This document shows positions 2,522 through 4,163 of a stretch of 23,550 nucleotides of DNA, piece by piece. How positions within the stretch are numbered: position 1 is the first letter of the stretch; each line of letters opens with the position of its first letter. The DNA is from a virus (lineage: Duplodnaviria > Heunggongvirae > Uroviricota > Caudoviricetes). A program made the translations under genes and the position numbers. Below the pieces are notes generated by a model, which did not search any database, had not been told where the DNA came from, and saw only the letters and a program-made list of their open reading frames with translations. The stretch is from IMG/VR virus record IMGVR_UViG_2718218360_000001, one strand, 5' to 3'.

Positions 2522-4163
2522 ACAATATATTTATTTTTGAACCAAGCAATAAAAACAACCCTCTCGATAATGTTATTAAGTTTATCGAGTTTTGTAAGAG
2601 TACTATTTCTAATAATAATTTAACAACTTCATGGGAAAGCAATAAATGGAAAGGTTTATATAGGTTTACTAAGTTTAACTCAAAAAACAACCTAAACAGC
2701 AAGGAGTGCTTAGATGATAGCTTTATTAATTTTGCTAAAGCATATATGTTGCATGTGCATTCATTCAATAAATCTAAGACGAAACACTCAACATTATCAA
2801 TGTTGAAGATTGTCGAATTCGTTTTACTTAAAATCAATATGGAAGCTAATGTAAACTATTGCAACAATTCAATCTATGATGAATGCATAAGGATAGCCTC
2901 TGAAAAGTATTCTAAAGCACATGCATTTGCTATTGGGAAAGAACTTGAGAAATTGAGTTCATTTTTAAATGATAATAGGATGACTAACTCATTTTATTTA
3001 TTTTGGGTAAATCCAATTAGGTATAGGATTACTCAGTCTTGGACTGGTTATGATTCTTCACTGGAAGGCCATTCTAGATTGCCTGATATCAAATCAGTTA
3101 TTGCGATTGCTGAGATTTTTTCAAAGCGGGATGAACAATTATCGTCAAGAGATATATTTACTACATCTGTGCTTGCTTTACTTATGTGTGCACCGAGTAG
3201 GATATCGGAAATTTTAGCTTTGCCAGCGGATTGTGAAATCACAGAATGTGATGGAAAGGGCATTCAAAGATACGGTTTAAGATTTTTTTCAGCAAAAGGG
3301 TATGAAGGCAATATAAAATGGATTCCAACTTTAATGATACCTGTAGCTAAAAAGGCTATTAGCAGATTAAAAGAATTATCAAGTCAAGCGAGGTTATTGG
3401 CTGCTGAAATTCAAAAGAATTACTCTAATTCAACGAAGGGAACCCTTAAAGAAAATATACCTCCTGATCTCTTTTGGTATGATAGAGAGAAGAAAATCAA
3501 ATATTCTAATGCGCTTTGCTTGTTAACTGAAGGACAGTTAAATCAAAATAAAAAGGAAATGTCAGATAAATTATTCAGACCTACAACGAATTTTTTTAAA
3601 ACTGATATCATTGATTCTGATTATATAAAAGGGTATTTTAATGTTTTTAAAAGACATGGTTATATAAATGAAGATGGTAGCCCATATTTGCTAAGAACAC
3701 ATCAACTAAGGCATCTTCTCAACACATTTGCTCAAATAAATGGTATGGATGAAATGGTATGGATGAATTTAGTATTGCTCGCTGGTCTGGACGTAAGCTT
3801 ATTTCTCAAAATGTTTCTTATGACCACAGATCGCATCTTCAAATGTCTAAAGCAATAAGAGAAAAAAAGTTATCAGTATGTGTTAATGAGCACAGAATAA
3901 AGGATATTCCAGTAGTGGATCTTAATGAGTTTGACTCACTTAGTAGTGGTGCAGTACTTGTATCAAAACATGGCTACTGCAAGCACTCATATGCGTTTAA
4001 GCCGTGTGATAATTATCCAATTAAGAACTCTGGTTTAGATAACGAAACGATTTCAAATATCCACGATAAAATTTTAAAAAGAACACTGTATGATAAAAAT
4101 GATGGGAACATAAATGCTGATAAATGGTATGAATTCCATAAAAAAATAAAAAAAGGAGAATAA
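2518..4163 (+). pseudogene. Tyrosine recombinase, third of the trio, frameshifted by a 14-bp tandem duplication (ORFs 2518-3858 and 3759-4163)
   Basis: Upstream part carries APSRISEI (Arg-I) and HQLRHLLNTF (box II). Downstream ORF in the other frame carries SGRKLISQNVSYDH (catalytic Tyr region). Deleting one 14-bp copy joins them in frame (...INGMDE|FSIARWSGRK...) into about 544 aa. Confidence 0.65.
3739..3766 (+). repeat. Perfect tandem duplication of 14 bp (AATGGTATGGATGA x2)
   Basis: Read directly: 3739-3752 and 3753-3766 are identical; period-14 identity spans 3738-3767. Confidence 0.9.

Follow-up and report, generated by a model that had tools for sequence, protein, structure and literature searches.

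A 14-nucleotide tandem duplication makes ginC a pseudogene in bovine-associated Escherichia coli O157:H7

How did the third recombinase-like gene of a GInt-type genomic island come to be interrupted by a perfect short repeat, and what does this lesion mean for the island? The question arises from a stretch of 23,550 nucleotides that is filed as a virus of the Caudoviricetes (IMG/VR record IMGVR_UViG_2718218360_000001) and that we refer to, at its full length, as the window. The window is a segment of the E. coli O157:H7 chromosome that reaches from the first start codon of a gin operon to smpB (ssrA at 22491-22853), and this stretch is annotated as 'prophage Sp17' in strain Sakai. From strain FRIK2455 it differs only by two hexamer variable-number tandem repeats (VNTRs) and one single-nucleotide polymorphism (SNP). 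The gin genes are co-oriented and tightly packed: ginA and ginB overlap by 11 nt, ginB and ginC by 4 nt, and ginD abuts ginC. A preliminary description of this DNA had pointed to a 14-bp duplication in ginC and had suggested that it inactivates or splits the gene, locks the island in place and could be reversible. Our answer, given with high confidence, is that the duplication is a neutral pseudogenization of single origin, and not a regulatory or switching device. The features on which the argument depends are the following.

2518-4163, + strand: ginC pseudogene, third recombinase-like gene, 543 residues when repaired, tyrosine-recombinase fold
2518-3858, + strand: N-terminal frame of ginC, 412 native and 34 out-of-frame residues, premature TAA at 3856-3858
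3738-3751, + strand: copy 1 of AAATGGTATGGATG, GinC codons I407 to E412
3752-3765, + strand: copy 2 of AAATGGTATGGATG, the derived insertion, which shifts the frame by +2 and is not found in 295 of 347 genomes
3766-3767, + strand: AA after copy 2, identical to the dinucleotide that opens the unit, a 2-nt microhomology at the junction
3759-4163, + strand: C-terminal frame of ginC, residues 410-543, with W418 (3783-3785), Y430 (3819-3821) and a Cys/His-rich domain

Tandem Repeats Finder reports AAATGGTATGGATG as a period-14 tandem repeat of 2.1 copies with 100% match and no indels at 3738-3767, the very coordinates given in the preliminary description. The repeat stands in the context ...CTCAAAT AAATGGTATGGATG AAATGGTATGGATG AA TTTAGT..., and the unit named earlier, AATGGTATGGATGA, is this repeat with its register set one base further on (3739-3752 and 3753-3766). 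Nowhere else does the 23.5-kb window contain a perfect, non-trivial tandem duplication with a period of 10-20; the mean number in 200 mononucleotide shuffles was 0.015. Both open reading frames (ORFs) described at this site are present, with 446 and 134 codons. Deletion of one copy fuses them into a single ORF (2518-4163 minus 14 nt), as had been predicted, with a length of 543 rather than about 544 residues. The repaired DNA is base for base the intact ginC of strains 86-24 (WP_001059531.1), Sakai and EDL933, and comparison of the loci identifies the second copy as a 14-nt insertion relative to 86-24. Given the microhomology at the junction and the ATGGT/ATGGA half-repeats within the unit, the insertion would most simply have arisen by replication slippage or by microhomology-mediated duplication.

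The insertion breaks the frame after E412, between R398 and W418/Y430, and does part the HxxR box from the conserved tyrosine, as first proposed. The 446-residue product retains the N-terminal DNA-binding domain, R228 (3199-3201), K260 and the H395-x-x-R398 box (3700-3702 and 3709-3711). Since W418, Y430 and the conserved C-terminal domain are missing from it, the two-copy ginC is a pseudogene. RefSeq already marks the gene as frameshifted in carriers (as 'DNA-binding protein, frameshifted' in the annotation by PGAP), and what is unreported is this allele; the kind of event, a short tandem duplication that turns a mobile-element gene into a pseudogene, is known. A full-length single ORF is the normal state of ginC, with a dN/dS of 0.16-0.17 between E. 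coli lineages. The start codon of ginD follows directly on the ginC stop codon and has a strong Shine-Dalgarno sequence of its own; in the two-copy allele, where translation would end about 305 nt early, any coupling of ginD to ginC translation is probably absent.

To learn where the second copy occurs, we surveyed the complete E. coli genomes, 5,426 in number. The locus is present in 347 of them, always single and always chromosomal. A 120-nt query spanning the site divides these cleanly, with two copies in 52 genomes (51 identical to the query, MB9-1 one SNP off), while the remaining 295 show the 14-nt gap of a single copy, which answers the question raised earlier about orthologues; no genome among the 347 has three copies. 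Among the one-copy genomes are those of O55:H7 CB9615, of 493/89 (a sorbitol-fermenting O157 strain), Sakai, EDL933, TW14359, EC4115, 86-24 and all non-O157 carriers of the locus. Because the O55:H7 ancestor type, 493/89, the Sakai-type strains and the non-O157 genomes all have one copy, the two-copy state is derived.

Variants linked to the duplication were compared over 32-40 kb around the site in six carriers (from Florida, Louisiana, elsewhere in the US, one unrecorded country and Okinawa) and eight non-carriers. A +T at reference position 6280 and a -G at 12596 are common to all six carriers and occur in none of the seven non-carrier O157 genomes. An IS1203 insertion in the Sp17 tail-fibre region is missing from 6/6 carriers, in a comparison that leaves out 493/89 and O55:H7, which have no Sp17, and 180-PT54, for which the fetched locus was too short. 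At position 16274 the carriers share an ancestral G with O55:H7, 493/89, 180-PT54 and NE92; they therefore branch outside the Sakai/86-24 group, and basal-type non-carriers exist too. Nested sub-clades can be told apart among the carriers (8256C/10521G, then 6409A), with two copies throughout. The -G at 12596 turns a G8 tract into G7 and frameshifts the ypjA/ehaD autotransporter gene to the left of the window (L001, 11110-15695); this frameshift is present in 6/6 carriers and in O55:H7, the gene is intact in 7/7 O157 non-carriers, and the lesion is a marker linked to the carrier clade in its own right.

By source, the 52 carriers come nearly all from cattle, beef or the environment, and one is human. 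Weinroth et al. 2023 divided 58 strains into 15 carrying the A allele of tir 255 (Manning clade 7, stx2c at sbcB, one human isolate) and 43 with the T allele. If their 'EX262' is GenBank '2-6-2', all 15 A-allele strains are carriers and none of the 43 T-allele strains is. Since the linked variants co-occur and the carriers match the tir 255 A set exactly, the data indicate one origin in the ancestor of this bovine-associated clade, followed by clonal, vertical inheritance without reversion. In this one checkable strain set, the 14-nt length difference (15/15 against 0/43) also provides a PCR-sized marker of the tir 255 A clade.

We then turned to the question as to whether the duplication locked the island in place. 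The premise of that proposal is sound: Bardaji et al. 2017 showed for Pseudomonas (P. stutzeri) that excision and integration each depend on all four gin genes. By analogy with the Pseudomonas elements, loss of the C-terminal third of GinC would abolish any residual gin-dependent recombination. Locking by the duplication is thus plausible, but largely moot, as the island appears to have been immobile beforehand. In every carrier of the locus examined, the gin genes are part of a backbone of the form (P4-type integrase)-DUF6387-HTH-ginABCD-hyp137-(hyp221/233)-relaxase-cargo inside a transfer RNA (tRNA) or transfer-messenger RNA (tmRNA) island. O55:H7 CB9615 and 493/89 keep the complete island. 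In every non-sorbitol-fermenting O157:H7 strain examined, an IS30 fragment ends the island after the gene for a BamE-domain protein, with Sp17 phage remnants beyond, and hyp233, the relaxase, the defence cargo and the terminal integrase are lost. The position of the locus is the same in all O157:H7 and O55:H7 genomes, whether ginC is intact or not. An empty site was found in none of the 5,426 E. coli genomes, and the flanks of the gin module (whose breakpoints lie some 280-320 bp upstream of ginA and some 40 bp past ginD) were adjacent in 0/827 genomes. Asadulghani et al. 2009 classed Sp17 of Sakai as Int- and Xis- and saw neither excision nor amplification nor packaging, in an assay aimed at the entire prophage and not at the GInt.

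The gin operon has also collected further lesions. Across thirteen O157:H7 strains it shows four mutations in total, of which three are inactivating and none is synonymous, in contrast to the ginC dN/dS given above for comparisons between E. coli lineages. Besides the ginC duplication, these are a nonsense change at ginC codon 426 of MB9-1 (CAA>TAA, Q426*), which sits on top of the duplication; a +A in ginD of NE92 (L017, 16458-16857) that shifts the frame after codon 110; and the non-synonymous change K145N. From the IS30 truncation, the fixed site, the lack of excision and these independent gin lesions, we infer a stranded remnant under relaxed selection. A single insertion, probably slippage-type or microhomology-mediated, has frameshifted ginC of this GInt-type island, and since the island was already stranded in the lineage, the mutation would be neutral decay. 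Its biological weight is small: another pseudogene in the decaying island remnant of a clonal pathogen.

Several points weigh against this reading. Two of the linked markers are homopolymer indels, a class prone to homoplasy, and the -G at 12596 is found in O55:H7 as well. The linked variants were examined in 6/52 carriers, and the match to the tir allele covers 15/52, the other 37 being outside the Weinroth set. The loss of an end of the GInt before the duplication is putative: no convincing att repeats were found to flank the gin module, and because neither attL nor attR was located, it is formally possible that the module of Sakai-type strains is still competent. Past mobility of the E. coli GInt and catalysis by GinC Y430 are both putative, and according to Idola et al. 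2023 GinC is without the catalytic motif.

This last point concerns the nature of GinC itself. A first search returned 612 GinC homologues, the full-length ones 540-670 residues long and spread across Enterobacterales, and an exhaustive search defined a family of 1,635 clusters at 50% identity. The GinC proteins of Pectobacterium, Klebsiella and Pantoea share 66-74% identity with this one. Sequence profiles are nearly blind to the relationship. Repaired GinC has no match in Pfam, in NCBIfam or by sequence profile in the PDB; neither the repaired protein nor the 95%-identical family member P0001 matches PF00589, for which 2/24 relatives reach E = 0.01; and an hhalign comparison of GinC with GinA aligned box I only, without significance. 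The fold speaks more clearly. For an AlphaFold2 model of P0001 (mean predicted local distance difference test score 74.8), the top matches of both fold searches are exclusively tyrosine recombinases, with a Foldseek probability of 1.00 for Cre/Tre, XerH, Tn1549 Int, IntI4, XerA and lambda Int, and the model contains the two-domain fold of this family (core-binding and catalytic).

Among 33 representatives down to 24% identity, no substitution occurs at R228, K260, H395, R398 or Y430, and the conservation of W418 is at least 90%; the motif contexts are CAPSRISEIL for R228, H395-x-x-R398, ARWSGR for W418 and NxxYNH for Y430. The distant representatives with names are from Beta- and Alphaproteobacteria, and the Pseudomonas prototype GinC is outside the comparison. 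The distance from R398 is 20 residues to W418 and 32 to Y430, which makes the signature spacing canonical; the corresponding distances in Cre are 23 and 32. Residue-by-residue structural equivalence of these positions to the active sites of recombinases is probable. The fold searches and the invariant R-K-H-R-Y residues thus favour a recombinase-like active site in GinC. To speak of a canonical recombinase, as the preliminary description did, is nevertheless overstated: the Pfam and NCBIfam profiles fail to see the protein, and Idola et al. deny it the catalytic motif. According to Bardaji et al. 2017 (Sci Rep 7:46254), only the first catalytic arginine is missing from GinC, in contrast to the box-I arginine that is invariant here; Idola et al. 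2023, citing Bardaji, state that GinC has neither the RHRY motif nor the catalytic tyrosine.

A stronger claim, that GinC of enterobacterial GInts is a catalytically competent third recombinase with the full R-K-H-R-W-Y signature under purifying selection, is one we would make only tentatively, as a minority possibility. It contradicts the published picture of a non-catalytic protein with a recombinase fold. The complete conservation of the active site in the GinC family likewise conflicts with a statement in recent literature on GInts and on SEs (integrative elements that circularize in a strand-biased manner), and it bears on the three-recombinase mechanism. If the claim is true, nature provides an isogenic contrast, intact in Sakai and O55:H7 and without the tyrosine in the tir 255 A clade, for the need of three recombinases. 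Two further features of the family may be recorded here. Beyond the recombinase core, a C-terminal extension without described function (residues 473-492 and 529-532; window about 3948-4130) conserves G481, C483, H485, Y487, P491, C492 and W532 (GYCxHxYxxxPC), a pattern that may represent a metal-binding module. In the 1,194-residue relative P0121, residues 520-1134 match the entire GinC profile, and this protein may represent GinB fused to GinC, or else a merged gene call.

If GinC is so competent, a bolder form of the same reading would be that loss of the tyrosine-bearing part was selected in the cattle-adapted clade. Selected loss of function more generally, with inactivation of ginC advantageous in this clade, we consider improbable. 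The gain could have been a more stable adjacent region that carries effectors, or freedom from harmful recombinase activity; the allele is fixed throughout the A clade, and the independent gin lesions of NE92 and MB9-1 could mean repeated selection against the operon. On the other hand, the A clade has many linked inactivating changes, so that clonal hitch-hiking suffices; most O157:H7 lineages retain an intact ginC without visible harm; and the excess of inactivating changes is equally predicted by neutral decay.

The suggestion that the duplication is reversible, so that gain and loss of one 14-nt copy would toggle the mobility of the island by phase variation, fares worse and is in our view very improbable. 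In principle, slipped-strand mispairing could delete one copy of a perfect duplication, and this loss would regenerate the exact wild-type gene. Yet one and two are the only copy states, two copies are limited to a single clade with its nested sub-lineages, and the 52 genomes include no revertant, nor is there a three-copy allele. In MB9-1 the added nonsense codon downstream means that reversion would no longer repair ginC. Copy number does not switch among close relatives, as it does at a phase-variable contingency locus; known contingency loci consist of multi-copy short units or homopolymers, unlike two copies of a 14-mer.

That the gene works in two pieces is less probable still. Here the 446-residue N-terminal protein and a 134-residue C-terminal protein started at ATG 3759 would reassemble into active GinC. 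Tyrosine donation in trans is possible in Flp-type tyrosine recombinases, the AlphaFold2 model places the break in a low-confidence loop between the predicted helices 394-407 and 412-418, and the duplication itself provides the in-frame ATG, which lies within copy 2 just after GGATGA. The predicted Shine-Dalgarno duplex at this ATG is very weak, however, with -3.1 kcal/mol against -6.4 for ginC and -8.7 for ginD, and the codon is embedded in a translated region, so that efficient restart there is unlikely. Moreover, no split form is described among the 120 homologues listed, the two-ORF form was not found outside the carrier clade, MB9-1 tolerates Q426*, which strips Y430 from any C-terminal piece, and the N-terminal piece would carry 34 junk residues. 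Of the earlier alternatives of an inactive gene or one made as two pieces, only the first stands. Finally, a sequencing or assembly artefact is hardly credible at all: short tandem repeats can be miscalled in general and nothing further favours it, while the identical two-copy allele stands in 52 complete genomes that were assembled independently and stem from a number of laboratories, countries and years, and it co-segregates with other variants and with the published clade, so that we can exclude the assembly error against which the preliminary description had advised a check.

Apart from the duplication in ginC, the window shows other variable features. The array GCCAGA x 30.7 (6488-6671) lies inside ORF 5469-6767 and encodes a Pro-Glu repeat; the length of this protein varies in nearly every strain, from 384 to 440 residues (432 in the window). 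The array is a hypervariable VNTR and possibly among the loci used for typing O157 by multilocus VNTR analysis. The IS30 fragment that marks the truncation of the island in non-sorbitol-fermenting O157:H7 (7112-9250) is itself split in the window by a complete IS1203/IS629 (about 7680-8990), which is also present in FRIK2455 and absent from 7409, F8092B, strain 113, OkiPb01686 and MB9-1. Between the IS30 remnant and an HNH endonuclease gene, the array TATTTC x 8.8 (9326-9378) differs in copy number among close strains; the difference from FRIK2455, for instance, is 24 nt. The island cargo includes a gene for a small BamE-domain lipoprotein (6843-7145, - strand); the genuine bamE is about 17 kb from this copy, just past smpB and outside the window.

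How does this locus compare with known systems? By its gene content and by published listing, the element is classed as a GInt, as the preliminary description held. In the PSI-BLAST-derived Additional file 10 of Idola et al. 2023, ECs_3510/ECs_3509 of Sakai and their EDL933 homologues, EDL933_RS18715/RS18710, appear as ginC-ginD; the homology of GinC and GinD to the prototypes of P. stutzeri DSM 4166 is adopted from this published list. The other genes of the operon are intact.

1-1206, + strand: ginA, tyrosine recombinase, 401 residues, intact; PF00589 with E = 2.4e-18, Xer-like matches in NCBIfam
1196-2521, + strand: ginB, tyrosine recombinase, 441 residues (437 from the PGAP start at 1208), intact; PF00589 with E = 2.9e-11, NCBIfam NF041502 with E = 1.8e-95
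4164-4562, + strand: ginD, 132 residues, intact; listed as ginD (ECs_3509) in Additional file 10 of Idola et al.

The operon thus has the four co-oriented, contiguous or overlapping genes of a GInt, with phage-integrase catalytic domains in GinA and GinB and a recombinase-like GinC. The product of ginD has no match in Pfam or NCBIfam, and its size is in line with GinD of GInts. For the prototype, Bardaji et al. 2017 describe a tripartite island with imperfect direct repeats of 10-17 nt and an AT-rich 3' end of 0.2-0.4 kb, which in Pseudomonas excises to a circle and integrates site-specifically; GinD is small with a C-terminal helix-loop-helix, and GinC was modelled on Cre, XerC and XerD. In contrast to this prototype, the flanking repeats and the AT-rich 3' end were not identified here, and the gin module always lies inside a larger tRNA/tmRNA island backbone, with no empty site. 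Its neighbours are constant in six neighbourhoods, with DUF6387-HTH (a helix-turn-helix gene) on the left and hyp137-hyp221/233-MOB relaxase on the right, and the islands (excluding NWU_4) sit at ssrA/ypjA, tRNA-Pro and tRNA-Leu. A constant relaxase partner is unexpected, GInts being described as non-mobilisable.

Truncated gin operons are known from P. syringae pv. phaseolicola 1448A (PSPPH_2793-2796 and PSPPH_3741-3744). As with ginC in O157:H7, they carry inactivating lesions and other mobile elements obscure the limits of the element, which is the same kind of decay; what sets the lesion in ginC apart is its form, an exact 14-nt tandem duplication, and its distribution, since one host clade is fixed for it and the sisters of that clade lack it. 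Within O157:H7, the closest parallels are the A-linked inactivations of Weinroth et al. 2023, namely a 10-bp indel in scpB, a 28/56-bp indel in scpC and seven amber mutations. The ginC duplication resembles them as a small inactivating indel that is completely A-linked in the 58-strain set, and differs in that it affects a mobile-element gene instead of a metabolic one and is not in that paper.

Two other multi-recombinase systems were considered and rejected. SEs (intA-tfp-intB-srap) and Tn554 share with gin an operon of several recombinases and a small auxiliary protein, with one unusually large recombinase-like protein. SEs differ in gene order, their proteins are unconnected to those of GInts by BLAST, and Idola et al. 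2023 scored Sakai as SE-negative and GInt-positive. Recombinase in trio (RIT) elements also have three adjacent tyrosine-recombinase genes. RITs are defined by exactly three such genes and terminal inverted repeats of about 34 bp, while gin has a fourth gene, ginD, and a GinC of 543 residues, and no long, well-matched inverted repeats were found around the module. Among the systems compared, the locus is thus best described as a GInt.
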